The notes: generated by a model from the sequence alone, not told the origin. A stretch of 32,000 nt of DNA from Nostoc punctiforme PCC 73102 (GCF_000020025.1 NC_010628.1:2250001-2282000); one strand, 5' to 3'. Positions 3,486-31,982 are shown, counted from the first letter of the stretch. Program-made: numbers and translations.

Positions 3486-3560
3486 GACTGATATTTGATT
3501 TTTGAAAAAACACCGTACAACTCAAAAAGCCTTCTTTCCTATTGCCTATTGCCTTCCCAC
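3486..3560. repeat. small dispersed repeat, copy A (about 75 nt)
   Basis: About 88% identical by hand alignment to the reverse complement of 26661-26736. The shared core is acaactcaaaaagccttctttcct. Confidence 0.7.
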
Positions 3561-11746: not shown

Positions 11747-12382
11747 CTATTGCTCCAACAATTTCATTCGTTGCCACCAACGATTAAGGGGATAATAAAC
11801 TACGGGTGCCCACAGACTACTAAGAATGGCAGAGGCGAGGGCGACACGCTGGTAATATGTCCAAATATCTGTTACTTTGCGCTCATTTCCTATTAAAGTT
11901 AATTGCAACCCAAAGATAGTTTCTGCCAAAACTGCCATCACAAAGACAATTACAGCAATTGAAATAAAGTCTTCTTCAATAAAACGCTGTTTCTGGAGTA
12001 GACCAGTTAAAATTCCCACGATTCCTAAACTGATGGCGTGAGTAGGGTTAGGTGCTGTCATGGAATCTTGAAGTAGCCCCAGAACTATACCTGCCAAGGC
12101 TCCAGCAAATACTGTGCGCTTCACACTCCAAGCTACCACCCAAATTAATAGCCAGTTAGGTCCAATTCCCAATAATTCCATACCTGGCAGGCGGGTTGGC
12201 AATAATAGTAAACATAACAGTACAGAACTAGCCGTCACTAACCAACTAAATAACTGCCGTACACCGGGATGCCAACGAGAAAGCGGCTGGATTCGGAATT
12301 TCGATTTTCGCTCTGACGATTTTGGCTTTTTCTGCCTGCTAATACCAAATGCAGGAATCTTCATTTTTCTATGGATTTTCAA
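11747..12382 (-). CDS. mreD: rod shape-determining protein MreD
   Basis: Polytopic membrane ORF directly after mreC (8-nt gap), the classic mreBCD order. The basic N-terminal extension means the true start could be internal. Confidence 0.8.
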   Translation of the reverse strand: MKIHRKMKIPAFGISRQKKPKSSERKSKFRIQPLSRWHPGVRQLFSWLVTASSVLLCLLLLPTRLPGMELLGIGPNWLLIWVVAWSVKRTVFAGALAGIVLGLLQDSMTAPNPTHAISLGIVGILTGLLQKQRFIEEDFISIAVIVFVMAVLAETIFGLQLTLIGNERKVTDIWTYYQRVALASAILSSLWAPVVYYPLNRWWQRMKLLEQ

Positions 12383-12390
12383 GGGAGAAT

Positions 12391-13200
12391 TTACTTAGAC
12401 TTTTGCGGCAGTTGATTTACCGACTTTTCATTTTCCGGCTCTTGGTTTTCTGGCTTTGGATAAACTGCTACCCAATCAAGAGAGCGGATTGGCGGAAAAA
12501 GCTCAATTTTCGCTACTGATGCTGGAAGTTTCTTTAAATCCAGCGACTTAATCCGTCCTACTGCCAACCCAGATGGAAATTTCTGACTATAGGTAGATGT
12601 GGAAACTAAATCTCCTATCTTGACATTTGGGACTTTTTCATAAAACTCCAGCACAGCTTCGGCAGAAGAATCTCCTCGCAAAACGCCTTTAGCTGCTGTG
12701 CGGCTAATTGATACACCAACTTGACTCTTGAGGTCACTGATTAACAACACGCGGCTAGTATTGGGAGTTACACTCTCCACCAAACCTACTAATCCGCCAT
12801 CAGCCTTGACTACAAAGCCTTCCTGAATCCCTGCATTCGCGCCGCGATTGAGAGTAACTTGTTGCCACCACTGGTCAGCACTACGTCCTACTACCCTGGC
12901 TGGAATTGGCCGTGATGCCAGTGGTTCTTTTTCCACATAGCCTAATAAATCTTGTAGCTTTGTCTTTTGACTTTCCAAATCTACTATACGGGTTTGCAAT
13001 TCTAATATCCGGGCATCTCTGATCCGTTCTTCTGGAGTTGGCCCTGACTGCAACATCTCTAATGGACGGGTAAGTGCCTGGTATGTCTCAAGCACCAATT
13101 CACCTTGAGTCTGTCGCAATACCCAAGCACTACCAACTACTAGAGCTAACAACCCAATTTGTAAGCCTTTACGATCCCACCAGCGCCGTATTGTAACCAT
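12391..13200 (-). CDS. mreC: rod shape-determining protein MreC
   Basis: 269 aa with an N-terminal TM anchor, a coiled-coil segment and a beta-barrel region carrying the GDLVSTS...FPSGLAVGRI motif. It sits between mreB and mreD. Confidence 0.9.
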   Translation of the reverse strand: MVTIRRWWDRKGLQIGLLALVVGSAWVLRQTQGELVLETYQALTRPLEMLQSGPTPEERIRDARILELQTRIVDLESQKTKLQDLLGYVEKEPLASRPIPARVVGRSADQWWQQVTLNRGANAGIQEGFVVKADGGLVGLVESVTPNTSRVLLISDLKSQVGVSISRTAAKGVLRGDSSAEAVLEFYEKVPNVKIGDLVSTSTYSQKFPSGLAVGRIKSLDLKKLPASVAKIELFPPIRSLDWVAVYPKPENQEPENEKSVNQLPQKSK

Positions 13201-13228
13201 ATATACCTTTATCTACTTATACAATTAA

Positions 13229-13281
13229 GTTCTATTTGGATTCTATTTATATAGAACCCAAATAGAACTCAAATAGAACTC
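13229..13281 (-). other. structured element in the mreB-mreC spacer (17-bp hairpin plus an 11-nt tandem duplicate of one arm)
   Basis: gttctatttgg-a-ttctat ttat atagaa-c-ccaaatagaac (13229-13268). aaatagaactc is directly repeated at 13260-13270 and 13271-13281. Confidence 0.5.
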
Positions 13282-13299
13282 AAGTATTATATTTTTTTG

Positions 13300-14343
13300 C
13301 TACATATTGCGAGAGCTTTCGGTAACAACCCGTTCTAGCTGTTTGAAGTTTTCTAACACCCGACCTGTTCCCAGCACAACACAACAGAGAGGGTCGGCGG
13401 CGATGTGAGTCACAATCCCCGTTTCATGACTAATTAAGGTATCTATGCCTTTGAGCAAAGCACCACCACCAGCTAACATAATCCCTCTGTCAATAATGTC
13501 TGCTGCTAGTTCTGGAGGTGTACGTTCCAGTGTCCGCTTCACAGCTTCTATAATTACTGATAGCGGTTCCAACATACTTTCACGGATTTCTGGGCCTTTG
13601 ATGGTTACAGTTCGTGGTAGACCAGAAAGCAGGTGTAAGCCTCGGATTTCCATCATGGCATCATTATCATCATGAGTAGGATAGGCAGAACCCATCCGAA
13701 TCTTGATGTCCTCGGCAGTACGTTCACCAATGACTAAGTTATGAACTTTCTTAATGTACTGAATGATTGAATCAGTCAGTTCATCTCCAGCAATGCGTAC
13801 TGATTCGCTGATTACCGTACCTTGAAGACTCAGCACTGCAACTTCTGTTGTCCCACCACCAATATCGATGATCATGTTGCCAGTTGCTTCGGCAACAGGT
13901 AGTCCTGCACCAATAGCCGCAGCTACAGGTTCATCGATTAAATAAACTTTTCTTGCTCCTGCTTGGTGAGCTGCATCCATCACAGCTCGCCTTTCTACTC
14001 CTGTGACACCACTGGGAATACCAATGACAATTCGGGGTAAAATTAGAGATTTGCCTTCATTTACACGCTGAATAAAGCTTTTCAGCATCAGCTCGGCTAT
14101 ATCGAAATCAGCGATTACACCATCACGCAAGGGGCGGAGGGCAATCACATTTCCAGGTGTGCGGCCGAGCATTTTTTTGGCTTCTTCTCCTACTGCTAGT
14201 GCTACCTTTTCGTTGACATCGATAGCAACTACAGAAGGCTCTTGCAGTACAATACCTTTACCAGATACATAAACCAGGGTGTTAGCAGTACCGAGGTCGA
14301 TACCCATATCCCACGATGTGCGAAAGTTCCTAAAAATACCCAC
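13300..14343 (-). CDS. mreB: rod shape-determining actin homologue MreB
   Basis: 347 aa with DLGTANTLVY, IDIGGGTTEVAV and LAGGGALL actin-fold ATPase motifs. Confidence 0.95.
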   Translation of the reverse strand: MGIFRNFRTSWDMGIDLGTANTLVYVSGKGIVLQEPSVVAIDVNEKVALAVGEEAKKMLGRTPGNVIALRPLRDGVIADFDIAELMLKSFIQRVNEGKSLILPRIVIGIPSGVTGVERRAVMDAAHQAGARKVYLIDEPVAAAIGAGLPVAEATGNMIIDIGGGTTEVAVLSLQGTVISESVRIAGDELTDSIIQYIKKVHNLVIGERTAEDIKIRMGSAYPTHDDNDAMMEIRGLHLLSGLPRTVTIKGPEIRESMLEPLSVIIEAVKRTLERTPPELAADIIDRGIMLAGGGALLKGIDTLISHETGIVTHIAADPLCCVVLGTGRVLENFKQLERVVTESSRNM

Positions 14344-18383: not shown

Positions 18384-20279
18384 GTGAAATTACACTGGTT
18401 ACTACCCAGCACTATTGGAACTATCTTCATGCTATCGTCGCCGGCAATGGCTGCGAGACTTGAATCTTGGCGCTTTGATGCCAATCAAAACAGGCTGGAA
18501 ATTAATACTGTGGGAGCAGTTCAACCCCAGGCACAACTAATTTTCAACCCGACTCGGCTGGTAATTGATTTGCCAGGAACTACATTTGGCCGTCCGCAGC
18601 TAACCCAACAGGTGGGCGGGGGAATTCGCTCAATCCGGGTTGGGCAGTTTGATACAGAAACAACGCGCATAGTTGTAGAACTGACACCTGGTTATACTTT
18701 AGACCCCAAACGCGTCCAATTTGTTGGCACATCTGGCGATCGCTGGACGGTGCAATTACCGAGACCAGAAGTTGATCGAGTAGCCTCATTTTCTGCCTCA
18801 CCGCCGAGAAGTGCTTACACTGTCGTTACCCCAGACTCTGAGCGGCAACCTGGTATTTCAAGGGTTGCCACTACTACACGAGGGGCGACGCAAATTGAGA
18901 GCTTGACAGTAACAGGCGATGGGTTATTCCTCCGTACCAGTGGTGGCAATCCGGGGATTAAGATAATTCGCAGCCGCGATCGCGCTAGTATCTTCATAGA
19001 TGTTTCTGACGCATCTTTATCACCACGTCTGGCGCAACAGAATAATCAGCCTGTTAACAAACATGGTATTAGCCGCGTCGAATTCACTCAACTACAAAAC
19101 CAAGCTCCTATTGTTCGCTTGACTTTGCGGGTAGATAAAAATAGTCCAGATTGGCAAGCAACTAATAGTAACAGTGGTGGTTTGGTGGTTCTGCCTAGTC
19201 GCGTTGTCAGATTGCCTGGAAGTAGTAATTCGGACAATCAATCACAACCACCCTCCTTCCCAAGTAGATTATCTGCTGCTAACAACTCCCCAGCAACCAT
19301 TGAGTCTGTGCAATTGGCTGATAATGGCAGACAGCTGCTGATTAGAGCCGACCAAACTTTATCTGCCGCAGGAACCTGGGATAGATCCTCCGGTGTGTTC
19401 CGCGTCACAATTAACAATGCCAAGTTAGCTCCCAGAGTTACAGGCCCTACTTTTGCCCCCAATAGCCCCATTCTCAGGGTACGTCTGCAACCCCAAGCAG
19501 CCAACACAGTTGTTGTTTTAGTTCAACCAGCACCTGGAGTGCAACTCGATCAACCCCAGCAAATCGGCGACCAGCTTTTGGCTATACCAATACAAGGTTC
19601 TCGTCGAATTGTTTCCCTTCCCGGAAGACCGTCCTTTGCTTTACCTGGGCTACCACCACCAAACCGGGGGCCATTCCCAGACCCAAACAATCCCAACCCC
19701 CAGCCCCAATTCCAACCACAGCGCCGGGTTACCAATGGACGAGTGGTAGTCATTATTGACCCAGGACATGGCGGTAAAGACTCAGGAGCGCTTGGTATTG
19801 GAGGGGCACGTGAAAAGGATGTGATCTTGCCTATTGGTAAAAGACTGGCACAGATTTTGCAGCAAAATGGGGTACAAGTAGTTATGACCAGGGATTCTGA
19901 CTATTTTGTTACCCTTCCGGGAAGAGTGCAATTAGCAGAGCGAGCTAATGCTGATGTGTTTGTGAGTATCCACGCTAACTCAGCAGGCGCGAGTCGTCCC
20001 GATGTTAATGGCTTGGAAGTCTATTATTACGACAGTGGTCTGGATCTTGCTCGCGTTGTCCGTAGTAGCATACTTCAAAGTATTGGTACTCTCAAAGACA
20101 GGGGAGTCCGGCGAGCCAGGTTTTATGTTCTCAGAAAAAGTTCTATGCCCTCCATTCTCGTGGAAACGGGTTATATGACTGGTCGAGAGGATATGGCTAG
20201 GCTGAGAACCTCAGCTTACCAAAATCAAATGGCAGAAGCGATCGCTCGTGGCGTTCTTCAGTATTTAAAGAGAAGATAA
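18384..20279 (+). CDS. amiC1: N-acetylmuramoyl-L-alanine amidase AmiC1 (signal peptide, two AMIN domains, Pro-rich linker, Amidase_3 domain)
   Basis: 631 aa with a GTG start. Signal peptide ...SSPAMA, AMIN repeats (LESWRFD..., IESVQLADNG...), catalytic domain VVIIDPGHGGKDSGA...SIHANS...VLVETGY. First of the tandem pair upstream of murI, as in Nostoc/Anabaena. Confidence 0.9.
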   Translation: MKLHWLLPSTIGTIFMLSSPAMAARLESWRFDANQNRLEINTVGAVQPQAQLIFNPTRLVIDLPGTTFGRPQLTQQVGGGIRSIRVGQFDTETTRIVVELTPGYTLDPKRVQFVGTSGDRWTVQLPRPEVDRVASFSASPPRSAYTVVTPDSERQPGISRVATTTRGATQIESLTVTGDGLFLRTSGGNPGIKIIRSRDRASIFIDVSDASLSPRLAQQNNQPVNKHGISRVEFTQLQNQAPIVRLTLRVDKNSPDWQATNSNSGGLVVLPSRVVRLPGSSNSDNQSQPPSFPSRLSAANNSPATIESVQLADNGRQLLIRADQTLSAAGTWDRSSGVFRVTINNAKLAPRVTGPTFAPNSPILRVRLQPQAANTVVVLVQPAPGVQLDQPQQIGDQLLAIPIQGSRRIVSLPGRPSFALPGLPPPNRGPFPDPNNPNPQPQFQPQRRVTNGRVVVIIDPGHGGKDSGALGIGGAREKDVILPIGKRLAQILQQNGVQVVMTRDSDYFVTLPGRVQLAERANADVFVSIHANSAGASRPDVNGLEVYYYDSGLDLARVVRSSILQSIGTLKDRGVRRARFYVLRKSSMPSILVETGYMTGREDMARLRTSAYQNQMAEAIARGVLQYLKRR

Positions 20280-20517
20280 GTAATTTAGTCGAAATTATTG
20301 AGTAAATACATCTAATCTTTACCATGTTTATCCAATTTAGTAGTAAAACCAATTTAAGTATTATTGCGGCGGGACAAGAGTAGCATCTTTGTTATTGTCA
20401 TCTGATGCTTTACAAGTCAAATTTATCTAGGCTAATGGATAGCATGGCAAAATCAGAGGAGCGTGCTATATTTTACGCCATTAGCTGTGTCTTAATAACA
20501 GCGTAATACTCAAGTGT

Positions 20518-20595
20518 ATGCGGTGATGGTGTGAGGATTTGCCAATATATTGAAATTTTGACGGCTCCCATGAATGTGAATCAGGAGAAAAGACT
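20518..20595 (+). promoter_or_regulatory. conserved 5' leader of amiC2 (paralogous to 18307-18383)
   Basis: See the 18307-18383 entry. Confidence 0.4.
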
Positions 20596-22491
20596 GTGAA
20601 ATTACGCTGGTTACTATCCAGTACTATTGGAACTATCTTCATGCTATCGTCGCCCGCAATGGCTGCGAAACTTGAATATTGGCGTTTTGATGTCAATCAA
20701 AACAAGCTGGAAATTAATACTTTAGGGAATGTTCAACCCCAAGCACAATTAATTTTTAACCCTACTCGTTTAGTAATTGATTTACCAGGAACGACATTTG
20801 GCCGTCCGCAGCTAACCCAACAGGTGGGCGGTGCAATTCGTGCTATCCGTGTTGGGCAGTTTGACGAACAAACAACGCGCATAGTCGTTGAACTGACTCC
20901 TGGTTATACTTTAGACCCCAAGGGAGTACAATTTGTTGGTAGAACTGGCGATCGCTGGACGGTGCAATTACCCACGCCAGTGGCCGAAAATGTTCCCTCA
21001 ATAAATACTGGTGGGCAACAACAAGCTATAGCAACACAACCCTCACTGAGAACATCTCCATCTGTGTTCTCCCCAAGAGATATTTACAACGTGGTGAGAA
21101 CAAGCCCTATTAATCCACCTAAAAACGGGATGCTTGCCGCCAGGGTAACTCAAATTGAGAACTTACAAGTTACAGGCGATGGTTTTTTCATCCGTACCAA
21201 TGGTGGTAATCCTCAGATTCAGGTAAATCGTAGCAACGATCAAAGAGAAATTAACATCGACATTGCCAGCGCTACTTTATCACCAAGTCTAGAGCAACGC
21301 GATTTGTCGATTAATCGTTATGGTGTCAGCCGTATTCAGTTCAGCCAACTACAAACAAGCCCATCTGTTGTTCGCATGACTTTACAGGTGGATGAAAATA
21401 GTCAAAATTGGCGAGCAACTAATAGTAACAGTAGTGGTTTTGTGCTTTTGCCCAGTCGTGGCATTGCTCAGTTCCCTGGAGGTAATAATAATCCACGCCC
21501 CATACCATCTAGTACAGGTACAGCAACTATTGAGTCTGTGCAACTGGCTAATAATGGCACACAACTGCTGATTAGAGCAGACCAAGCTTTATCTGCAACA
21601 GGAGGCTGGGATAGAACTTCTGGTCTGTACCGCATTACCATCAACAATGCTCGGCTAGCTCCCAAAGTTACAGGCCCGACTTTTAATTCTAATAGCCCTA
21701 TCCTGCGAGTCCGCCTGCAACCCCAAGAATCTAATACAGTCACCGTCTTGGTTCAGCCAGCAGCCGGAGTGCAAATTGGCGAACTTAATCAAGTTGGCGA
21801 CCAGCTTTTGGCTCTAGAATTACAACGTTCTGGTAGCGTTACACAGCAGCCCATTGATTTACCTCCTTTATCGCCAAACCAAGGTCAATTTCCCAACTCC
21901 ATAGATAATCCCCCTCCTATATCTCGGCCACAGCCTCGCCCCTCTGTTCCTAGAGGGAAATTACTAGTTGTGATTGACCCAGGACATGGTGGAAAAGACT
22001 CAGGCGCTCCTGGTCTAGGTGGGCTTTTAGAAAAGGATGTAATTCTGCCTATTGGTAAAAGGGTAGCTGCAATTTTAGAGCAACATGGTGTACAAGCAGT
22101 ATTAACGCGGGATGCTGACTTTTTCGTAGAACTTCAGGGAAGGGTAGAAATTGCCGAGCGAGTTAATGCAACTGCATTTGTCAGCATTCACGCTAATTCT
22201 GTTGACAATCGCCCTGATGTGAATGGGTTAGAAGTATATTATTACGATAGCGGTTATGCTTTGGCAGAAGTAGTTCGCAATACTATTCTGCAAAACATCG
22301 ATACAATCAAAAACCGAGGAACCCGCAAAGCCAGATTCTACGTTCTCAGGAAAAGCTCTATGCCCTCGATTTTAGTAGAAACAGGTTATATGACTGGTCG
22401 AGAAGACAATCCCAGATTGGCATCACGAGAGTATCAAAATCAGATGGCAGAAGCGATCGCTCGTGGCATCCTAAAATACTTACAGCGTTAA
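20596..22491 (+). CDS. amiC2: N-acetylmuramoyl-L-alanine amidase AmiC2 (septal nanopore-forming amidase paralogue)
   Basis: 631 aa with a GTG start and the same architecture as AmiC1. The N-terminal AMIN domain and the catalytic domain are highly similar, while the inter-AMIN and Pro-rich linkers are divergent. Confidence 0.9.
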   Translation: MKLRWLLSSTIGTIFMLSSPAMAAKLEYWRFDVNQNKLEINTLGNVQPQAQLIFNPTRLVIDLPGTTFGRPQLTQQVGGAIRAIRVGQFDEQTTRIVVELTPGYTLDPKGVQFVGRTGDRWTVQLPTPVAENVPSINTGGQQQAIATQPSLRTSPSVFSPRDIYNVVRTSPINPPKNGMLAARVTQIENLQVTGDGFFIRTNGGNPQIQVNRSNDQREINIDIASATLSPSLEQRDLSINRYGVSRIQFSQLQTSPSVVRMTLQVDENSQNWRATNSNSSGFVLLPSRGIAQFPGGNNNPRPIPSSTGTATIESVQLANNGTQLLIRADQALSATGGWDRTSGLYRITINNARLAPKVTGPTFNSNSPILRVRLQPQESNTVTVLVQPAAGVQIGELNQVGDQLLALELQRSGSVTQQPIDLPPLSPNQGQFPNSIDNPPPISRPQPRPSVPRGKLLVVIDPGHGGKDSGAPGLGGLLEKDVILPIGKRVAAILEQHGVQAVLTRDADFFVELQGRVEIAERVNATAFVSIHANSVDNRPDVNGLEVYYYDSGYALAEVVRNTILQNIDTIKNRGTRKARFYVLRKSSMPSILVETGYMTGREDNPRLASREYQNQMAEAIARGILKYLQR

Positions 22492-22618: not shown

Positions 22619-23485
22619 GTGTATTCATCTTCGATCTTTGAAGCGAATCTGGACGATTTTTCGGCTCTTGAACCCCAACGTGCCCCAATTGGCATCTTTG
22701 ACAGTGGTGTGGGTGGATTGACGGTACTGCGACAAATATATCGGCAACTCCCCAATGAATCAATTGTTTACTTTGGGGATACAGCCCGACTTCCTTATGG
22801 AATTCGTTCACAAGCAGAAATTTTACAATTTACGCGCGAAATTCTTACCTGGCTACAACAGCAGCAGGTAAAAATGGTAATTATGGCTTGCAATACTAGT
22901 TCTGCCCTAGCCCTAGAAACCGTTCGTCAAGAATTCAACATACCGATTTTAGGGGTGATTCTACCGGGTGCAAAAGCTGCGGTGCAGGAAGGAAAGCGGA
23001 TTGGTGTAATTGCCACTCCAGCTACGGCAAAAAGTAATGCTTATAAGCACGCCATTCTCGAAATTGCTCCTGATGTTCAAGTCTGGCAAGTTGGATGTCC
23101 AGAGTTTGTGCCACTTATTGAGCAAAACCGGATTCACGACCCCTACACTGCGGAAGTGGCAAGAGCCTACTTAGAGCCTTTACTAGAGCAAGAAATTGAC
23201 ACCTTAGTTCATGGCTGTACCCATTATCCCCACCTTACACCAGTATTGCGATCGCTCCTTCCCTCTCAAGTCAAGCTAGTTGACCCAGCTGTTCATGTCG
23301 TGGCAGCTTGTGCCCAAGAGTTAGACTTGCTAGGCTTAAAAAATACTCACCCCCCACTACCAACTCGTTTCGCTGTTAGCGGGTGTCCACAACAATTTTC
23401 CCAGTCAGGAGTGCAATGGCTAGGCTATACCCCGATGGTTGAAGAGGTTCGCTTTAATGATAGCGCTATTTCCCAACTTCTTTGA
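22619..23485 (+). CDS. murI: glutamate racemase
   Basis: IGIFDSGVGGLTVL, MACNTSSA and HGCTHYP motifs (the two catalytic Cys regions). Confidence 0.9.
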   Translation: MYSSSIFEANLDDFSALEPQRAPIGIFDSGVGGLTVLRQIYRQLPNESIVYFGDTARLPYGIRSQAEILQFTREILTWLQQQQVKMVIMACNTSSALALETVRQEFNIPILGVILPGAKAAVQEGKRIGVIATPATAKSNAYKHAILEIAPDVQVWQVGCPEFVPLIEQNRIHDPYTAEVARAYLEPLLEQEIDTLVHGCTHYPHLTPVLRSLLPSQVKLVDPAVHVVAACAQELDLLGLKNTHPPLPTRFAVSGCPQQFSQSGVQWLGYTPMVEEVRFNDSAISQLL

Positions 23486-24269: not shown

Positions 24270-24880
24270 TTATTCTGCAATCAAACACTGTAAGGAATCG
24301 GAATCAAGTTGACTTGATTTTGAATAGACCTGGATATGTAGCGACGCCCAATCATCATCTTCATCAGAGGTAGTTGTTAACTCCTGAGTAGTCCCCTGTT
24401 TACCCTGATTCGTCAAAAATACAAATGCGCGATTGAGCCGCTTTACCCCACTGAGCGTAATTAGGGCCAGTAGCCCTCCTAATAATCCCATTTGCCACAG
24501 ACCACAACCAATCGCAGCCCCCAACCCGGCCGCAGTCTAGACACAGGCGACTGTAGTTAAACCTTTTACTTTTGGTGTTGCAGATTTTCTAGGAGACTCT
24601 TGTAAAATCAATCCGGCTCCGAGAAATCCTATCCCGGTAGCTACACCCTGAATGGTGGACTCAGTGCATTGGTGGCAGCATAAGGACTATCGCCCTCAGC
24701 CTGCAAAGGAATCATTACGAATAGTGCTGCTCCCATACTCACGAGCATAAATGTTCTCATCCCTGCTGGTCTACCCCCTTGCTGACGGTTAAATCCAATC
24801 AGGCAACCAACCAGAAGCGCCAAAGACAATCTAAACGCTATATGTGGCCAATCGTTGGCAGTAATAAACATCGGCCCCAT
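24270..24880 (-). pseudogene. mgtC: MgtC/SapB-family membrane protein gene interrupted by one frameshift and one in-frame TAG
   Basis: Fragments 24641-24880 (...LVGCLIGFNRQQGGRPAGMRTFMLVSMGAALF...) and 24270-24524. The middle piece reads TIQGVATGIGFLGAGLIL...KGLTTVACV*TAAGLGAAIG in a second frame. TAG at 24537-24539 sits where the family has Trp (TGG). Confidence 0.75.
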
Positions 24881-25330: not shown

Positions 25331-26632
25331 TCAACCAAAACTTTGAACAACATACATATCATTACCAGTATCCCCTACTAAAAGCAAGTTACTGTCATCA
25401 CTTTCTAGATTTCGACTGCCAGCAATACCCTTTTGCAGGACTTTAATCAGCCTTTGGGGAGAGAAAGATTCTAATTCCACAAACTTTCCAGATTCTAACC
25501 ATGCTAATTCTTCAGCAGACAAAGTTTGACGAATCTCTTGAGGTAATTGTTTAGCTACTTGCGCCGAATCTAGAGAAGATTGAATGAACATTCCGCGTTT
25601 AGTAGCGATAATTTGACTTGGCGTTAATCCGATATCAATAATTGCAATCTCGCTATTGAGAAACCAACTATCATTGCTTCTCAAATTATGAACTAAACTA
25701 ATTCCTCGTGGATTGCAATCATGAACTGCATATACTTTCAAATCGGGATTGCGGCGTAGCATTTGCATTGTGGTGTCAAAAATGCTTTGGGGATATCCAG
25801 TAATGCTGAGAATTGCACAGTTATTTTCAAAGTGAAAATTATTAGCAATTAATAGTTGAGCAATATTAGCACTATCACAAACAACTAATCTATCGAAACT
25901 GTAAGCAGTCACATCAGGATTAACCGTAGCTGGTGTATTTTCCTCACGCGGAAAAGGTAGGATTTTAAGAATTGAACCATTGATTTTCTGCCATCGGTTT
26001 AACCAACCTTGAAAATCATTTTGAGAAAATGAAAACTCCTGTGCAAATTTAGTTTGTCCTAGCTGTCGAGTTCCCCAGTATATCGACAGCATCCCTAGAA
26101 TAACGGCGATGACAAATAGACTAAACGAGTTATATATAATTAAGCTAGCAACAATTCCTACAGCAAGAATAATGCCTCCTATTATTTGTAAGCATCTAGC
26201 ATATTCTTGGCGAGGCTTAATATGTGTTTTCTTTGATGTAGATTTTGTATATAAATATAATACAAAGCATATATTAAATAGAATAGATACTGTCAGGAAA
26301 GAATTAGCACCAAACAAGAAGGAAGCAAATCCACCTATGAATCCTGGTGCCCAAACATTAAAAAATAGATATATAAACAACAAACCAAATATTGAAGTAG
26401 ACTTGGATTTTATCCGATTATCTAATAAATAAAGCAGTTGCTTGGGTGTAAAAAATAAGGTGTGATTTGCAGAAATATCAGCGATCGCCTTTGCAAAAAA
26501 AGGATCAGTAATCTTAACTTTACTCATACTGGTCGGTTCAAAGGCAAAGGGATGATTGCATTTTATACACCGACCTTGATTAGCTGTCCGGTCTTTTAGT
26601 TTATTGTCAGTTCCGCAGTTAATGCACTTCAT
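25331..26632 (-). CDS. uncharacterised protein: N-terminal zinc ribbon, four TM helices, C-terminal Toprim-like (Spo11/TopoVI-A C-terminal-like) domain
   Basis: 433 aa. CINCG...CIKCNH zinc ribbon, two hydrophobic hairpins (about residues 80-125 and 150-190). The C-terminal segment is RLVVCDSANIAQLL...AILSITGYPQSIFDTTMQMLRRNPDLKVYAVHDCNPRGISLV. This mirrors the Toprim layout vVEK...litgKGyPd..TR.fl..L...pvy.l.D.DP.G..I. Confidence 0.75.
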   Translation of the reverse strand: MKCINCGTDNKLKDRTANQGRCIKCNHPFAFEPTSMSKVKITDPFFAKAIADISANHTLFFTPKQLLYLLDNRIKSKSTSIFGLLFIYLFFNVWAPGFIGGFASFLFGANSFLTVSILFNICFVLYLYTKSTSKKTHIKPRQEYARCLQIIGGIILAVGIVASLIIYNSFSLFVIAVILGMLSIYWGTRQLGQTKFAQEFSFSQNDFQGWLNRWQKINGSILKILPFPREENTPATVNPDVTAYSFDRLVVCDSANIAQLLIANNFHFENNCAILSITGYPQSIFDTTMQMLRRNPDLKVYAVHDCNPRGISLVHNLRSNDSWFLNSEIAIIDIGLTPSQIIATKRGMFIQSSLDSAQVAKQLPQEIRQTLSAEELAWLESGKFVELESFSPQRLIKVLQKGIAGSRNLESDDSNLLLVGDTGNDMYVVQSFG

Positions 26633-26660
26633 AATGGTTGCCCAATGTTATTTATTAATT

Positions 26661-26736
26661 GTTGGGAAGGTAAGAGGCAAGAGGAAAGAAGGCTTTTTGA
26701 GTTGTATGGAGTTTTTTCACACAATCAAATATGAGT
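26661..26736. repeat. small dispersed repeat, copy B (inverted relative to copy A at 3486-3560)
   Basis: Hand alignment gives about 88% identity with one 1-nt gap. It occupies most of the spacer between the LysA-like stop and the Zn-ribbon gene start. Confidence 0.7.
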
Positions 26737-26737
26737 C

Positions 26738-28018
26738 TTATAGCACCTGATTTGTTAGTAAAACACTGTAGTCTTCCCGCCGACGAATCAAGCGATGTGT
26801 GCCATTTTCTAGCAAGACTTCAGCAGGTTTGGGGCGGTGTAAAAAGTGAGACGACATAGCATAACCATAAGCACCGACATCTAGAATGGCAACGATATCA
26901 CCAATTTCTAACGCTGGAAGTTGGCAATTTTTACCCAGATAATCTCGTGAATAGGTGGTATTACCACAAATATCAGTTGTGAATAAGGAGCGAAGATTGT
27001 CTGCTTGCTTCCAAGTGAATATTTCTCGGTAGCCACCGTGTACTGATGGTACTGAAAGATTGGCAACGGTGGTATCAACTCCAATAATCTGTTTTTCTCC
27101 TTGCCATTTCACAGAAACAACTTGAGCAAGCAAAGTTGCACATCCTGCGATCGCACTTCGTCCCGGTTCAATCACCAAATCAATTTTCCGCCCTAAATGA
27201 GTAATTCTCTCGCTTAACTCAGCGCCAAAGACTTCCCAGTCAAAGGCTGTTTTGTTGTGGTGATATGGATAGCCAAAGCCACCACCAAAATCTAAATATT
27301 CCCAATCTGGTAACAGTTGTGCTGTGGCTATGACTGCATCAATCACTTGGGTAAATGCTTCTGTGGCATTGGTTCCAGTCCCTCGATAAAAGTGTAAACC
27401 ACTCAGCTTTAATCCAACTTCACGAGTTAAAGCGATCGCATCACCAAATTCTTCAGGACGCACACCAATGCGGCTATCTCCGGTAATTTCGGGCAAATTG
27501 AGGCGTAAACCCAGCCGAATAGATTTCTCTCTGTGTTTGGGCAAAACTTTGCAGCACAACTGCAACTGAGCGAGACTATCGAGATTGAGTGTTGTAACTC
27601 CCCAATTTAAGACTTGTATCATCTCAGCCCGATTCAAATTGCTACCACTGTAAACAATCTCACTAGGATCGAAACCAGCTTGCAATCCCAGGTAGATATC
27701 TCCTGGCGTATTAGCGTGAAGTCCCCACCCAAATGAGCGAAAAATTTTTAACAGGGCAATATTGCCATTAGTAACGCTTGCAAACCGAAATTGCGTGCGG
27801 CGATAACTGATTGCTTTAGTAATGCACTCAATAGTTTCGCGCAAGTGATCGCCATTATAAACATAAAGAGGAGAACCATAAGTACTCAGGAACTCCTGGG
27901 CAAGTTTCCCAGAAAATGGGAGAGACAAGGGGATTAATTGTTCACTCCTAACTCCTAACTCTTTTTTATCTAACCTTGCCATCGCTTGTAATTTCTCCAT
28001 AGCCAACGATGTAACCAA
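26738..28018 (-). CDS. diaminopimelate/ornithine decarboxylase-fold (fold-type III PLP) protein lacking the canonical PLP-binding lysine
   Basis: 426 aa, collinear with E. coli LysA (SPLYVY, FGGGFG, EPGRS, VGAYGYAMSS, LIRRRE). At the FAxKAxxN motif it reads FASVTNGN (Val82, codon 27773-27775). Alternative in-frame starts are at 28000 and 27982. Confidence 0.85.
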   Translation of the reverse strand: MVTSLAMEKLQAMARLDKKELGVRSEQLIPLSLPFSGKLAQEFLSTYGSPLYVYNGDHLRETIECITKAISYRRTQFRFASVTNGNIALLKIFRSFGWGLHANTPGDIYLGLQAGFDPSEIVYSGSNLNRAEMIQVLNWGVTTLNLDSLAQLQLCCKVLPKHREKSIRLGLRLNLPEITGDSRIGVRPEEFGDAIALTREVGLKLSGLHFYRGTGTNATEAFTQVIDAVIATAQLLPDWEYLDFGGGFGYPYHHNKTAFDWEVFGAELSERITHLGRKIDLVIEPGRSAIAGCATLLAQVVSVKWQGEKQIIGVDTTVANLSVPSVHGGYREIFTWKQADNLRSLFTTDICGNTTYSRDYLGKNCQLPALEIGDIVAILDVGAYGYAMSSHFLHRPKPAEVLLENGTHRLIRRREDYSVLLTNQVL

Positions 28019-29808
28019 AAAGGATGATCCAGGGACTGTTTACTTAGTTCTTCATTTAAAACATGCGATCGCCAAAGTTGCCACATAATAAGTAACCAGA
28101 GAGTCTCACCAATCCGCCTGCCTTGAATAGCTGCTCCTAGTTTGCCTTCAACGATTTGGGCCGCAATGTGAGGATAAAAGTGATTGTTGGTGCGAAGTGT
28201 CTCTGGATTGAGCCAGATGCCTAGCTGATGCCAAAAATCATTTAAACACCAAGAAGTTAGGGGAACCCCCATCCCCCGTTTTTGTCGCCAGACAATTTCA
28301 GGTGGGAGCCAATTTTCTACAGCCCGCTTGAGGATATATTTTTCACAAGCTCCTTGCAAACAGAGTTCTCCAGATAGGCGGAATGTCCATTCTGCCAAAG
28401 GTAAATCACAAAAAGGCGATCGCACCCATAATCCATGAGCAAACCCCAATGCAGCCGCACGTGGATGGATATTCTGCGCTCCTTTGAGCATCAAACTAGC
28501 ACGGCGGAGGCGATGCAGCAAAGATGGACACTCATTGCGATTAAGAGCCGCCAACAGCCAATCTTCAGGATGCAAATTTTGGATCTGTGCATAAACCTCC
28601 GGCTGATAAACTTGAGATTCGTATCCCCCAAGACGGTGAAAGGTGCGGAGATATTGCTGGATAAAAGTTTCCTGTCCTGCGGGATTTTCTGCCTGATAAA
28701 CACCTGCGGCAATTAAAGGTTTGTTCGTCCAACCGGCAAACAATTGATCTCCACCTTCGCCGTTAAAAATTACCTGAGTTTCTTGACTCGCCCTTTCAGA
28801 TAAGAGATACAACGGAACACACACGCCATCTCCAAAGGGTAAATCTAATGCTTGCACAGTAGGAATTAAGGCATTCTTGATGGAACTTGGCGTTACTGCA
28901 ACTTTAATAAGCGGAATTTTGAGAAACTGGGCAACTTGTTCAGAGTATGGATATTCTGGAATGCCTACATCACCAAAATCTAAAGTGTAAGCGCGGACTT
29001 TCACCCCTGCTTGCACCAGCAGCGCCGCCACCACTGAAGAATCGAGTCCGCCAGAGAGAAACACCCCAACAGGTTCATCCTTTAAATCGGCAATCTGTCG
29101 TTCAATGGAATCTTTAAGGAGGGTTTGCAATTCGGTAATTGCTGTAGCTTCATTTGTTAACTGTTCTGGGGCTTCCCGCCACGAGTCGATGTGCTTAGAT
29201 TTAGGTGTTTGCAGCTTACCTGATTGACAATCACTCTGCCAAACTAATTCAGTTCCCGCCGTCACTGCAAACACTTCCTTAACAGGAGTTAAGGGTGTGG
29301 GAACGTAAGAAAAACAGCTATAGCCATATAACCCAGAAATGCTAACTTCTGACTGTTGCAAAATCGGTAAGAGTAGTTGCAGTTGTGATGCAAACCAGAT
29401 AACTTGTTCTTGCTGAGTCCAATACAAGGGCATCTTTCCGAAAGGTTCTCTACCCAAAATTAGGCAGTTATTTTCTTGAACACTTACCCAAGCATCGGGT
29501 GAAGTTAATAATCCTGATGCTGAAATAGCAGCAATTTGATTTTTTAGCGGTGGACAATTTCCATCAAGTCCTATGTAAACAACATTCCAAATAGGAAAAG
29601 GATAATTTTCTTGTAGAGAGAAATTATTTTTCTGACCTAACCCCCTAACCCCCTTCCCTTGCAGGGAAGGGGGAAAGTTCAAAGCCTCTCCCCTTTTAGG
29701 GGAGAGGTTAGGAGAGAGGTTTTCCAGAACGCTATTTAACAACGCCTCCAACTCATGTTGAGCGCCATAACCCCAATAGCCAAGAAAGTGATGCGGGATG
29801 TTGTCCAT
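27970..29808 (-). CDS. asparagine synthetase-family (AsnB-like) adenylating enzyme without the N-terminal Cys nucleophile
   Basis: 612 aa. PP-loop VGVFLSGGLDSSVVAALL, NGEGGDQLFAGW, VRSPFCDLPL and KYILKRAV...WRQKRG match the AsnB synthetase domain. The N-terminus is MDNIPHH... rather than MCG, and the glutaminase-domain region is short and degenerate. Confidence 0.85.
   Translation of the reverse strand: MDNIPHHFLGYWGYGAQHELEALLNSVLENLSPNLSPKRGEALNFPPSLQGKGVRGLGQKNNFSLQENYPFPIWNVVYIGLDGNCPPLKNQIAAISASGLLTSPDAWVSVQENNCLILGREPFGKMPLYWTQQEQVIWFASQLQLLLPILQQSEVSISGLYGYSCFSYVPTPLTPVKEVFAVTAGTELVWQSDCQSGKLQTPKSKHIDSWREAPEQLTNEATAITELQTLLKDSIERQIADLKDEPVGVFLSGGLDSSVVAALLVQAGVKVRAYTLDFGDVGIPEYPYSEQVAQFLKIPLIKVAVTPSSIKNALIPTVQALDLPFGDGVCVPLYLLSERASQETQVIFNGEGGDQLFAGWTNKPLIAAGVYQAENPAGQETFIQQYLRTFHRLGGYESQVYQPEVYAQIQNLHPEDWLLAALNRNECPSLLHRLRRASLMLKGAQNIHPRAAALGFAHGLWVRSPFCDLPLAEWTFRLSGELCLQGACEKYILKRAVENWLPPEIVWRQKRGMGVPLTSWCLNDFWHQLGIWLNPETLRTNNHFYPHIAAQIVEGKLGAAIQGRRIGETLWLLIMWQLWRSHVLNEELSKQSLDHPFWLHRWLWRNYKRWQG
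29632..29722. repeat. small palindromic dispersed repeat (SDR/MITE-like) inserted in frame inside the AsnB-like CDS
   Basis: Two hairpins: cccccttccct/agggaaggggg (29649-29673) and cctctcccct/aggggagagg (29685-29707). The ends are cctaacc.../...ggttagg. It is translated as NLSPNLSPKRGEALNFPPSLQGKGVRGLGQ. Confidence 0.6.
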
Positions 29809-29813
29809 CTGGA

Positions 29814-30437
29814 CTATTTCACTTCAAAGGTTTCATCACTAATCTGCCGACCTTCCAGCAACATCTGCACCTTCCAATTGCCAACAGTTGCAGCCGGATT
29901 AATCGTGTAGCGACACTGCGTATCCCAGACAGACGTATTAATTTCGCGGGTTTGATAACTGTTTTGCTTGACAATTTGACCACTTGGGTCAATCCAATTA
30001 CAGGAGAGAGCCAGCTTTTTACCCAAGGGTGCATCCTTTAAAGTGACATGGTAAAAAATTTCTGGATTGGTTTGGCGGGAAATTGTCTTCAAGTCACCGC
30101 CAGTATTTGATACCAAGGTGATGCGGTCTTGTTGAGCAGAAACACGAGAGAGTGCAGAATTCTGTCGCTGGATGAAAAATATTGTAGATGCACTCAGTAT
30201 CACTAAGAATGCCACAACTCCAGAGGTAATCCATCGATTGCGGCGTTGCTCTACCTCCAGCGCTTGGCGGCGATTTAACTGAATCAGCGCTTCATCTAGT
30301 AACTCAGGCGGTAAATTCAACTCCTGTAAAATTTCTCTAACCTGCTGTTGGTCTAGTTCCGCTTCTCGACGCACTTGCAGACCTTCTACTTCTGTGACTA
30401 TTTGTGCTAATTGTTCTTGAGTCAGTCGCTGCGTCAT
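29814..30437 (-). CDS. hypothetical single-pass membrane protein (helical charged N-domain, TM, about 110-aa two-Cys beta-rich C-domain)
   Basis: 207-aa ORF. The TM helix is WITSGVVAFLVILSASTIFFI. Its stop lies 5 nt before the AsnB-like ATG. Confidence 0.7.
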   Translation of the reverse strand: MTQRLTQEQLAQIVTEVEGLQVRREAELDQQQVREILQELNLPPELLDEALIQLNRRQALEVEQRRNRWITSGVVAFLVILSASTIFFIQRQNSALSRVSAQQDRITLVSNTGGDLKTISRQTNPEIFYHVTLKDAPLGKKLALSCNWIDPSGQIVKQNSYQTREINTSVWDTQCRYTINPAATVGNWKVQMLLEGRQISDETFEVK

Positions 30438-30632
30438 CGCTTAACTCCTGTTAAAAAAACTTGATGGCGATTCTTGATCTTGATTACGTGCAATCAGAAG
30501 AACTCTATACTTACTTTTCTAGGTACATCATAAGCTACAACATAAAGTTGTTGCTTTTCGGATTCTTTCTGAGATATCTTTCCGAAAGCTTTATTTATTT
30601 GACCAATCTAAAATCTAAAATCCAAAATTGTT

Positions 30633-31664
30633 ATGGCTCAAGAACAACAAACCGCAATTGAAGGTATCTATGAAGTCTGTATCGGCATTCCAGAACCAAT
30701 TTCTGCAATTCAGTATTGGGAGCAATTTGGCTATCGTATTGGTCAAGTGGGTGAATTAACCGCAGATATAGCTTATCAATTATATGGAGTAAATTCGTCT
30801 TTACGCTCAATTCGCCTCTACCACCAAAATTCAGATCATGGTTTGATTCGGTTGATGGTTTGGCAAAACCCTACCCATGAAGGTTTGGGAATAGCATCGA
30901 TGAAAATTAAGGGAAATCGTTGGGCAACAAGCCTAACAACCGATGTGTTAAGTATCTTAAATCATATAGAGGATGCAAAAGCCGCAGGTTTTCCTATTAG
31001 GCACTCTAATCCTTATTGGGAAGTCATTTACAACAAAGAGAGGAAAAGCCGTCCTTTTGTTGAGTCAGCAGTTGGTGTGCGAGAAATGCTGCTACTTCAA
31101 CCGTTAGCTCGACAAGTTTTATTTCAACGATTTGGCTATACACTACCGGATTACGGACAAGTTAATCATAATGCTGCTCTCAAGGCTAGTCAGTTTACTC
31201 ATATAGGAATCATCTCTCAAGATGACAGCAAAGAAACCCTCAAGTTTTACGAAGAAGTTTTAGGTTTGCTGCGTGTGCGTGATGATGTCGAAACTAGCTA
31301 TGAATCTTCGCCAGCAGGTCGAGATATTTTTGACCTTAACCCTGGTGAAAAGTTTATTGTTACTGCTTTTGACGATCCGCGTTCTTCTAAGTCTGACCTG
31401 ATGGCTGCACGCAGTGGTAGGCTTTATATTGTTCGATTCCCAGAATCTATTAATTTAGAATCGCGTTTTGAGGCAGCCCAACCAGGTAGCTTAGGTATGT
31501 CTTTATATACCTATCGGGTTAAGGGAATACAACACTATTGCGATCGCATTCAAGCAAGTACTGTACAAAAAGTTACAGATATTATTAGTAATGAGTTTGG
31601 CGAGACGAGTTTCTCTTTCATTGCACCAGATGGCTACTTCTGGACTTTGCTGGAAGCTAATTAA
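30633..31664 (+). CDS. VOC-family (glyoxalase/bleomycin-resistance/dioxygenase fold) protein, multi-module
   Basis: 343 aa. FTHIGIISQDDSKETLKFYEEVLGL is a typical VOC beta-alpha-beta-beta-beta opening motif, and the N-terminal half has a similar layout (IYEVCIGIPEPISAIQYWEQFGY). Confidence 0.65.
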   Translation: MAQEQQTAIEGIYEVCIGIPEPISAIQYWEQFGYRIGQVGELTADIAYQLYGVNSSLRSIRLYHQNSDHGLIRLMVWQNPTHEGLGIASMKIKGNRWATSLTTDVLSILNHIEDAKAAGFPIRHSNPYWEVIYNKERKSRPFVESAVGVREMLLLQPLARQVLFQRFGYTLPDYGQVNHNAALKASQFTHIGIISQDDSKETLKFYEEVLGLLRVRDDVETSYESSPAGRDIFDLNPGEKFIVTAFDDPRSSKSDLMAARSGRLYIVRFPESINLESRFEAAQPGSLGMSLYTYRVKGIQHYCDRIQASTVQKVTDIISNEFGETSFSFIAPDGYFWTLLEAN

Positions 31665-31733: not shown

Positions 31734-31982
31734 TCATTTATTTACGTCAATAGACAGTTCCTTTTTGCTATGTCTCAACTGTTTCCAAAGCGCCCTAATT
31801 TGCTCGTAAGCTTCTTCTGGAGATAGTTTTCCGCCTGTTTCTAGACAAGAAATGTAAGTAATTCTTTGGGCAAATTCTTGAAGGTTGGCATTAAATGCTA
31901 AAGTCTCTGGCTGGAATTTACCATAATATCGGCTACGAGGGTAAAGAAAGCTATTTTTATCTTGCGAGTTAGGCTGTGTCAT
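31734..31982 (-). CDS. small hypothetical protein
   Basis: 82-aa ORF with plausible composition. No recognised motif. Confidence 0.45.
   Translation of the reverse strand: MTQPNSQDKNSFLYPRSRYYGKFQPETLAFNANLQEFAQRITYISCLETGGKLSPEEAYEQIRALWKQLRHSKKELSIDVNK

Follow-up and report, generated by a model that had tools for sequence, protein, structure and literature searches.

Within a window of 32,000 nucleotides (nt) from Nostoc punctiforme PCC 73102 (GCF_000020025.1 NC_010628.1:2250001-2282000), which is the whole stretch of DNA that was analysed and from whose first letter all positions are counted, four genes on the minus strand form a compact module encoding two degenerate enzyme homologues and two membrane proteins. 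According to open reading frame (ORF) calls, the first gene (29814-30437) codes for the bitopic membrane protein TM207 of 207 amino acids (aa) and the second (27970-29808, ATG at 29808) for AsnB1, a protein of 612 aa resembling asparagine synthetase. The third gene (26738-28018) specifies a protein related to the diaminopimelate (DAP) decarboxylase LysA, which comprises 426 aa if translation starts from a TTG codon, and the fourth (25331-26632) encodes Znr433, a protein of 433 aa with a zinc ribbon, transmembrane (TM) helices and a Toprim-like domain. The start of the LysA-like gene is uncertain: TTG 28018, ATG 28000 and ATG 27982 would result in an overlap with the AsnB1 gene of 49, 31 and 13 nt, respectively. 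Only 5 nt separate the TM207 stop codon from the AsnB1 start, and 105 nt lie between the stop codon of the LysA-like gene and the start of Znr433. A previous sequence-only reading of the window had described the same four genes with the 5-nt gap, an overlap of 13-49 nt and a 105-nt spacer consisting mostly of a dispersed repeat (57 of the 105 nt), and the ORF calls reproduce this layout. Because of the gene spacing and the overlaps, which indicate co-translation, the four products are likely to be made together. Overall, the module may represent a novel membrane-bound machine that makes amide bonds at the expense of ATP.

Conservation and composition of the module

Relatives of AsnB1 were detected by one motif scan in 513 species-level genomes, and the best 80 loci were examined. 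These loci, referred to below as the Nostocales set, come from Nostoc, Desmonostoc, Komarekiella, Cylindrospermum, Stigonema, Scytonema, Calothrix and Anabaena and from one metagenome-assembled genome (MAG) of the Xenococcaceae. The closest genome is that of Nostoc sp. LEGE 12450, whose AsnB-like protein is 97% identical to that of the window. The order TM207 > AsnB1 > LysA-like > Znr is held in about 95% or more of the loci: TM207 precedes AsnB1 in 74 of the 77 evaluable cases, the LysA-like gene comes after it in 75 of 77 and the Znr gene in 74 of 74. TM207 and AsnB1 are mostly 5 nt apart in Nostoc and mostly 1-9 nt apart in the other Nostocales, and the other junctions vary between overlaps and insertions. 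All four genes occur in identical order in Microcoleus, in a Leptolyngbyaceae MAG and in four metagenome contigs at 42-46% identity. Moreover, the first three genes are present in a Blastocatellia (Acidobacteriota) genome and the first two on an Obscuribacterales fragment. In the distant taxa, the module genes overlap by 1-14 nt or lie 0-32 nt apart. The arrangement is beyond chance because it was encountered in dozens of genomes from different orders and phyla. The proposal that enzyme homologues and membrane proteins constitute a tightly coupled module has thus held, the order being retained far beyond close relatives.

The sequence-only reading had counted four genes, which turned out to be too few. 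A second gene of the AsnB family, designated Asn2 (~540-585 aa, without N-terminal Cys), belongs to the module as well. It is convergent and lies just downstream in Microcoleus, in Leptolyngbyaceae and in four metagenome loci (L086, L088-L090), and it is found within 10 kb in 34 of the 80 loci of the Nostocales set. In the nearest relatives of the window, Asn2 is located just past a DUF7219 gene (2438-4216 in L065). Thus, the window probably cuts the module off, and the Asn2 gene of N. punctiforme would be expected immediately beyond coordinate 32000.

A metagenome scan that was seeded with the Zn-ribbon/Toprim family yielded at least 232 relatives, and 80 loci were examined. By an automatic count, the gene directly upstream of Znr is AsnB1-like or LysA-like in 57 of the 64 evaluable loci; in the remaining seven, AsnB1 is listed before Znr and the adjacency was masked by an over-extended ORF call for Znr. 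Asn2 lies no more than 700 nt downstream of Znr in 48 of 59 loci, on the same strand in 29 and convergently in 19. Among the 32 metagenome loci exceeding 9 kb, AsnB1 was found in 30, Asn2 in 28, a LysA-like gene in 21, a TM207-type gene in 18 and a cupin gene in five. No further neighbour family and no small ORF or precursor-peptide gene recurred in the 80 metagenome loci. Therefore, the system looks self-contained, with AsnB1, the Zn-ribbon/Toprim protein and Asn2 as a constant triad and with the LysA-like protein, the bitopic protein and the cupin as accessories. TM207, AsnB-like and LysA-like genes occur together in nearly all Nostocales loci; across taxa, however, the constant core is the triad and the LysA-like gene is accessory.

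Neither Iningainema (L074) nor L070 has the LysA-like gene at the locus, and whole sub-families lack it; in L136, L160 and L165, it is positioned upstream of the TM207-type gene. Three loci with more distant AsnB1 relatives (35-37% identity) lack it and show the order AsnB1-like > Zn-ribbon/2TM/Toprim-like > Asn2-like. Two of them (L087, L091) encode a cupin and a different bitopic protein, whose N-terminal helix reads DLPEEYLERAAAEL. The same LysA-less architecture was also observed in L093, L101, L138 and L141; the variant loci usually encode a bitopic protein of 268-340 aa with a related N-terminal helix motif, several contain a cupin gene and some stem from high-GC organisms (L087, 72% GC). 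A GluQRS-like gene beside the module in L092 was discarded as a one-off neighbour; its product shows no homology to the proteins of 268-270 aa encoded in L091 and L087.

Properties of the encoded proteins

AsnB1 is probably a PP-loop enzyme of the adenylating type that belongs to the asparagine-synthetase family and has a degenerate N-terminal domain. The protein matches the Pfam family Asn_synthase (1.3e-57), the match to GATase_7 is marginal (residues 111-147) and the score against TIGR01536 is below the equivalog cut-off (183.0 versus 267.1 bits). The N-terminus MDNIPHHFLGYWG lacks Cys2, and no conserved Cys nucleophile is present in 12 aligned AsnB1 homologues or in the distant ones. The PP-loop SGGLDS comprises residues 252-257, and an alignment to 1ct9 pairs E351 with E348 and K510 with K449 of E. 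coli AsnB. The PP-loop, the Glu and the Lys are invariant in the AsnB1 and Asn2 families alike. Furthermore, each family has an invariant signature, which is FNGEGGDQLF[AG]GW in AsnB1 and LNGEGGDPCFGGPKN in Asn2. AsnB1 carries a Trp-rich C-terminal extension and its identity across cyanobacterial orders amounts to 62-66%. Around residues 30-75 (29580-29720), the protein of the window contains the low-complexity insert LSPNLSPKRGEALNFPPSLQGKGVRGLGQKNNFSLQ, which it shares with Nostoc flagelliforme; the insert is missing in nine of the ten other aligned homologues, and Microcoleus has a shorter, unrelated one at this site.

The LysA-like protein consists of the Pfam domains Orn_Arg_deC_N and Orn_DAP_Arg_deC and can be aligned over the full length of its fold-type III architecture with LysA from Aquifex (2p3e; E 2e-46). 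However, it does not reach the equivalog cut-off of TIGR01048 (241.6 versus 297.9 bits). In this alignment, V82 occupies the position of the Schiff-base Lys (YAVKAN is changed to FASVTN), and HCHIGS, RPSIY and CETGD are replaced by HFYRGT, VPSVH and TYSRD, respectively. The motifs GGGFG, EPGR and GAYGY, which provide the phosphate and ring ligands, are retained. The Val at the Schiff-base position was found in 54 of 54 orthologues and in the copies from Blastocatellia and L086, which were both translated and also carry the other substitutions. Moreover, FASVTNGN, HFYRGT, CGNTTYSRD, GGGFG, EPGR and GAYGY show little or no variation among the 54 orthologues, and the copies from Blastocatellia and L086, like most of those from metagenomes, contain FA[AS]VTNGN and CGNTT[YF]SRD. 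Because the altered residues are conserved to this extent, the pocket has probably been remodelled under selection rather than decayed. The protein would be unable to form an internal aldimine with pyridoxal phosphate (PLP), and its DAP-binding residues are replaced. The second His of HCHIGS, which corresponds to the PLP ring-stacking His197 of ornithine decarboxylase, is a Tyr in the LysA-like protein. The sequence-only reading had stated that the AsnB-like protein lacks Cys2, that the LysA-like protein lacks the Schiff-base Lys and that both keep their binding motifs, and the alignments to E. coli AsnB and 2p3e agree in every point.

Znr433 is composed of an N-terminal zinc ribbon with four Cys residues (CxxC...CxxC), four predicted TM helices and a C-terminal Toprim-like domain, as had likewise been recognised in the sequence-only reading. 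The Toprim model of Topo VI-A/Spo11 (PF21180) scores 29.7 bits, which exceeds the Pfam cut-off of 24.1 bits, and it matches 24 of the 24 family members scanned at E up to 0.01. The AlphaFold2 model of the full-length protein is poor, with a predicted local distance difference test (pLDDT) score of 57.5 and no significant Foldseek matches; in the part with the zinc ribbon and the TM helices, the pLDDT lies above 80. By contrast with the full-length model, a model of the Toprim domain only (predicted TM-score 0.62) gave Foldseek matches to 1d3y_B (E 4.3e-5, probability 1.00), M. mazei Topo VI and Spo11, with E-values from 4e-5 to 7e-4. In a weak HMMER alignment to 1d3y, D253, D305 and N307 are found at the positions of E197, D249 and D251. 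Position 253 is a Gln in the distant homologues L086 and L090, and the third position of the triad is never acidic in distant homologues. A Cys/His/Cys site formed by C252, H304 and C306 in place of the triad had been considered and was dropped, as the 1d3y alignment puts D253, D305 and N307 there. Apart from this weak 1d3y alignment, profile and single-sequence searches of the PDB with the Znr and TM207 families returned chance or marginal matches. No 5Y-CAP or catalytic-Tyr domain was found in Znr433, whose N-terminal part is made up of the zinc ribbon and the TM helices. The family has its own invariant motifs YSFDR, NNFHFENN and GYP and is encoded next to AsnB1 in all loci that could be evaluated. 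Judged by sequence and predicted fold, Znr433 is thus Toprim-like and most probably not a topoisomerase.

The C-terminus of Znr433 reads QSFG and follows a tail rich in Gly, Asp and Ser. The terminal -FG is present in 79 of 79 full-length metagenome Znr proteins, of which 53 end in DSFG and the others in D[AGNCR]FG, [EQS]SFG or QTFG, and it is also found in all 24 cyanobacterial homologues and in distant ones. The 28 residues preceding the terminal motif are hypervariable and contain 49% Gly, Asp and Ser as compared with 17.5% elsewhere in the protein; in the model of Znr433, the pLDDT of the tail is 25-33. This is the pattern that would be expected of a flexible tail presenting a conserved terminal motif. 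Some tails include an internal second copy of D-S-F-G (e.g. ...YDSDSFGVEAGTMDGGADGFG), and the Znr gene is tandemly duplicated in some metagenome loci (L103, L108, L131, L139).

The N-terminus of TM207 is helical and carries the conserved motif LNLPxELLDEA. It is followed by a single TM helix (~residues 70-91) and a beta-rich C-terminal domain, for which weak but recurrent matches to the Ig-like families MG2 (9 of 11 members) and DUF3859 (6 of 11) were obtained. The topology is probably N-in/C-out because an RRNRW cluster precedes the TM helix. A homologue with 30-64% identity is encoded directly upstream of AsnB1 in the Microcoleus, Leptolyngbyaceae, Blastocatellia and Obscuribacterales loci. 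A disulfide in the outer domain was also considered; this idea was abandoned as the Cys pair does not co-vary cleanly.

Possible functions and genomic surroundings

The best explanation, to which we would assign a probability of roughly 0.3, is that amide bonds are formed, possibly on the Znr tail, by two carboxylate-adenylating enzymes that are tethered to the membrane and do not depend on glutamine. AsnB1 and Asn2 would each activate a carboxylate with ATP. Since neither enzyme is predicted to use glutamine, the acyl group would be handed to another amine, which would result in an amide, isopeptide or lactam bond. The Zn-ribbon/Toprim-like protein and TM207 would anchor both enzymes to the cytoplasmic side of the membrane, where they would act, and the beta-sandwich domain of TM207 would face the periplasm. 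The favoured substrate would be the flexible Gly/Asp/Ser-rich tail of the Znr protein itself with its invariant -x-F-G carboxylate, because the triad has no other conserved partner and the C-terminal Gly is invariant; taken by itself, this assignment is doubtful. The LysA-like protein, or the cupin in other lineages, may serve as an accessory ligand-binding or tailoring subunit and not as a Schiff-base decarboxylase, since the LysA-like gene is dispensable in many lineages. A comparable case is antizyme inhibitor, which is an inactive homologue of ornithine decarboxylase. A rather unlikely elaboration of the amide-bond proposal is a system for modifying or conjugating protein C-termini, in which AsnB1 and Asn2 would adenylate the C-terminal Gly (...D-S-F-G-COO-) of the acidic Znr tail and then amidate or cyclise it or ligate it to an amine. 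The target would be a membrane protein and not a secreted ribosomally synthesised and post-translationally modified peptide, and the LysA-like protein or the cupin would supply or shape the amine partner. If true, the logic known from ubiquitin and Atg8 would have been realised with PP-loop enzymes in hundreds of cyanobacterial genomes and in other phyla.

Several observations weigh against amide-bond formation on the Znr tail at the membrane. The tethering of the soluble enzymes is inferred from synteny alone, and a docking role or a place in the fold of the domain would explain the invariant -FG equally well. In profile comparisons, AsnB1 and Asn2 most resemble amidotransferases of the small-molecule type (TIGR01536, TIGR03108, TIGR03104) and not lasso cyclases, and a LysA-like pocket with PLP-phosphate ligands as well as a cupin are typical of small-molecule chemistry. 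In the Blastocatellia locus, Znr and Asn2 genes are not nearby. Furthermore, a few distant AsnB1 copies may retain the Cys nucleophile: a possible CG[IVFWLM] is located near the start in six of 46 metagenome copies, and the AsnB1-like protein of L092 (2211-3965) begins with MSGICGWIG and may have the Cys behind a short propeptide, which suggests that the loss of the glutaminase is not universal in the wider AsnB1 family.

Modification of an envelope precursor is an improbable alternative, albeit one with points in its favour. Here, the substrate would be a lipid-linked intermediate of cell-wall or polysaccharide synthesis, and the synthetase-like pair would amidate one of its carboxylates, or couple an amino compound to it, on the inner side of the membrane. 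Candidates are the carboxylates of meso-DAP (mDAP) or D-Glu in the stem peptide of lipid II, or those of a uronic acid, and the LysA-like protein would bind a partner of the diamino-acid type. The module is associated with the membrane, and a periplasmic beta-sandwich domain is predicted for TM207. Compounds of the Asp and DAP type are substrates of the parent families: LysA acts on DAP, and mDAP is amidated by the AsnB-type enzyme LtsA/AsnB1. In the LysA-like protein, the pocket still has its phosphate and ring ligands. However, the Arg, Tyr and Cys-Glu by which LysA binds DAP are all replaced. Moreover, the known amidases of mDAP and isoglutamate use glutamine, which the synthetase-like proteins of the module cannot hydrolyse. 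Envelope genes adjoin the module in some loci (Amidase_2 in L085, WecG/pyruvyl-transferase in L089), and mreBCD (11747-14343), two AMIN-Amidase_3 genes (18384-22491) and murI (22619-23485) do lie near the module in the window, at the positions given in the sequence-only reading. Yet no envelope gene recurs among the 80 metagenome loci, and the linkage to murI, amiC and mreBCD is restricted to Nostoc strains that are >95% identical; murI was found in four of the 80 loci of the Nostocales set and msrB is likewise confined to >95% identical strains. The proximity of peptidoglycan genes is not conserved and therefore gives no functional hint.

With still lower probability, the pair could synthesise a lactam or an amide in a diffusible product that is tailored by the LysA-like protein and the cupin. 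Homologues of asparagine synthetase without Cys include beta-lactam synthetase and carbapenam synthetase, TblS and TabA represent a pairing of a synthetase-like with a LysA-like protein, and LysA-like and cupin folds are common in natural-product clusters. By contrast, the identity of 62-66% among AsnB1 proteins across orders and the stable gene order are typical of housekeeping genes and not of patchy clusters, and the surroundings contain no recurrent gene for a transporter, a non-ribosomal peptide synthetase or polyketide synthase, a set of oxygenases or any other pathway step. Normal PLP catalysis needs the Lys that is missing from the LysA-like protein, the structures of beta-lactam synthetase and CarA are absent from the PDB sequence matches at E 1e-5 or better, and the two membrane proteins would be left unexplained.

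It is just as improbable that the module is a non-catalytic sensor or regulatory complex, whose pseudoenzymes would bind ATP, PLP-like compounds or metals and relay an envelope signal from TM207. Such a role would account for the loss of the hallmark catalytic residue in each of three enzyme folds, for the bitopic protein with its extracytoplasmic domain and for the incomplete acidic triad of the Toprim-like domain, whose Glu equivalent is a Gln in two distant homologues. However, the PP-loop, the Glu and the Lys are fully retained and invariant in both synthetase-like paralogues, which argues for real adenylation chemistry, and there is no recurrent output domain of the DNA-binding or kinase type. 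A system for anti-phage defence or conflict, in which a Toprim nuclease or 4TM effector would be combined with nucleotide-modifying PP-loop enzymes, has very little in its favour: the module does hold a Toprim-type domain, a zinc ribbon and TM helices and weakly matches a SMODS-associated 4TM effector (Pfam E 0.074, PADLOC E 0.0054) and QueC, but the 4TM matches, which fall into hydrophobic helices, do not exceed chance level, none of the PADLOC models gives a significant match, the metal ligands of the Toprim domain are degenerate and the locus is stable, highly conserved across orders and outside a variable island. Finally, an ordinary glutamine-dependent asparagine synthetase next to an ordinary diaminopimelate decarboxylase can hardly be correct, as the database names and Pfam domains fit but the Cys nucleophile and the Schiff-base Lys are lacking, the DAP-binding residues are replaced and both proteins remain below the equivalog cut-offs.

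If the amide-bond system is real, it is a widespread multi-protein machine for which no characterised member was found and which extends from the 513 species-level genomes to Obscuribacterales, Acidobacteriota and high-GC metagenome lineages. It would also point to a chemistry that has not yet been assigned to the asparagine-synthetase family, possibly the modification of protein C-termini. In three enzyme folds, hallmark catalytic residues have been swapped for new and strictly conserved ones, and the module therefore bears on how pseudoenzyme-looking proteins gain functions. In many cyanobacterial genomes, the genes almost certainly bear wrong names, by which metabolic reconstructions would be misled. 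For experiments, the three-gene core and the invariant -FG tail are direct and inexpensive starting points.

As regards the surroundings of the module, the 57-nt repeat between the LysA-like gene and Znr433 (26663-26719, no strand assigned) has an inverted copy at 3503-3559 with 91% identity, and it is outside the functional module. In other Nostoc genomes, this spacer commonly measures 15-29 nt and is longer where extra sequence sits, with a range from 15 to ~250 nt among most of them. The 195-nt intergenic region upstream of TM207 (30438-30632, no strand assigned), which is shared with a divergent glyoxalase-fold gene, is presumed to be the promoter region of the operon. A scan for promoter and terminator consensus sequences performed no better than with shuffled sequences, and the sole consensus promoter-like match in this region is on the plus strand. 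With Rfam, no family matched the region at E up to 1, and neither a riboswitch nor any other RNA family was detected in the entire window at the gathering thresholds. The divergent gene (30633-31664, plus strand) encodes a glyoxalase/VOC-fold protein of 343 aa and is followed by the DUF7219 gene (31734-31982, minus strand). Both separate the module from Asn2 in Nostoc, are kept beside it in many Nostoc genomes and are absent from most other lineages. The two AMIN-Amidase_3 genes (amiC1/amiC2-like, 631 aa each) are tandem duplicates whose nucleotide sequences are 73-86% identical along most of the genes. An MgtC-family gene (24270-24880, minus strand) appears to be a pseudogene: a frameshift splits a 79-aa N-terminal ORF (MgtC profile positions 1-45) from the remainder, and an in-frame stop lies within GLTTVACV*TAAGLG, at a position that is a Trp in MgtC proteins. 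L007 and L065 contain both fragments with 95-100% conservation. A TgpA-like transglutaminase gene (TgpA_N, Transglut_core, DUF4129; 1055-3370, minus strand) is located 22 kb from the module. The B proteins of lasso-peptide systems are transglutaminase-like; the TgpA-like gene is not among the annotated or recurrent neighbours of the module in other loci.

Comparison with known systems

Within the limits of the libraries used, the system appears to be undescribed. No model of NCBIfam, Pfam, PADLOC or Rfam captures the module as such, and no description of it was found in the full-text literature, in which only precedents for asparagine-synthetase-like enzymes turned up. As the sequence-only reading had supposed, none of the proteins could be placed in a characterised pathway, since none reached the cut-off of any characterised family in the profile searches. 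The NCBI names of the module proteins are generic or 'hypothetical' and include 'asparagine synthase (glutamine-hydrolyzing)' and 'diaminopimelate decarboxylase'. A comparison with PADLOC-DB v2 did not yield a significant defence match; QueC (3.6e-5) reflects the generic PP-loop and the 4TM effector (0.0054) matches in the TM helices.

AsnB1 shares with E. coli AsnB (PDB 1CT9) the two-domain layout, the SGGLDS PP-loop and the catalytic Glu and Lys. It differs in having no N-terminal Cys, only a remnant of the glutaminase domain and the Trp-rich C-terminal extension, and its gene adjoins those of membrane proteins and of a second Cys-less paralogue. Beta-lactam synthetase, CarA and TblS, the lasso cyclases and the peptide C-terminal amidases/nitrile synthetase TsrC, ScdTA and PesC belong to the same superfamily as AsnB1 and Asn2, whose chemistry is presumably alike. 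All of these glutaminase-less enzymes adenylate the carboxylate, and in the synthetases and cyclases the nitrogen nucleophile is the substrate's own amine. TsrC, ScdTA and PesC are reported to act on the C-terminal carboxylates of peptides, and PesC uses glutamine or ammonia (PMC13060819). Lactam formation by enzymes of the family is also on record (PMC13060819). The module stands apart from enzymes of the TsrC, beta-lactam synthetase and lasso types by its two paralogues encoded beside membrane proteins. The PDB sequence matches of AsnB1 at E 1e-5 or better comprise AsnB, TsnB9-type proteins and human ASNS only, and chains of beta-lactam synthetase and CarA are not among them. Asn2 is below every curated cut-off. 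With 51.6 and 183.8 bits, respectively, against a cut-off of 525 bits, AsnB1 and Asn2 are not members of the lasso-peptide cyclases (NF033535/NF033561), and the module loci lack the recurrent precursor-peptide, protease or transporter gene of lasso systems.

The LysA-like protein shares with LysA (2P3E) the complete fold-type III architecture and the motifs GGGFG, EPGR and GAYGY, and it differs by the exchanges of Lys to Val, of the second His to Tyr, of RPxxY to VPxxH and of Cys-Glu to Thr-Tyr. An AsnB-family gene next to a LysA-family gene is likewise encountered in the XrtA/PEP-CTERM pair and in tabtoxin biosynthesis (TblS/TabA). The analogy to tabtoxin and exosortase-A loci drawn in the sequence-only reading did not stand up, however, as AsnB1 and the LysA-like protein score far below the cut-offs of TIGR03108 (163.3 versus 816.9 bits) and TIGR03099 (106.7 versus 478.45 bits), respectively. 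No exosortase, acyl-CoA ligase/acyl carrier protein or other tabtoxin gene occurs in any annotated module locus, and in contrast to the XrtA and tabtoxin pairs, the LysA-like gene is dispensable in many lineages of the module.

Znr433 resembles the Toprim domain of Topo VI-A/Spo11 (PF21180, 1D3Y) in both sequence and predicted fold, and it is devoid of the 5Y-CAP/winged-helix domain with the catalytic Tyr. The triad E...DxD of Topo VI-A corresponds to D...DxN in Znr433 and is not conserved in distant homologues. Unlike in Topo VI-A, the Toprim-like domain of Znr433 is fused to a zinc ribbon, TM helices and the -FG tail.

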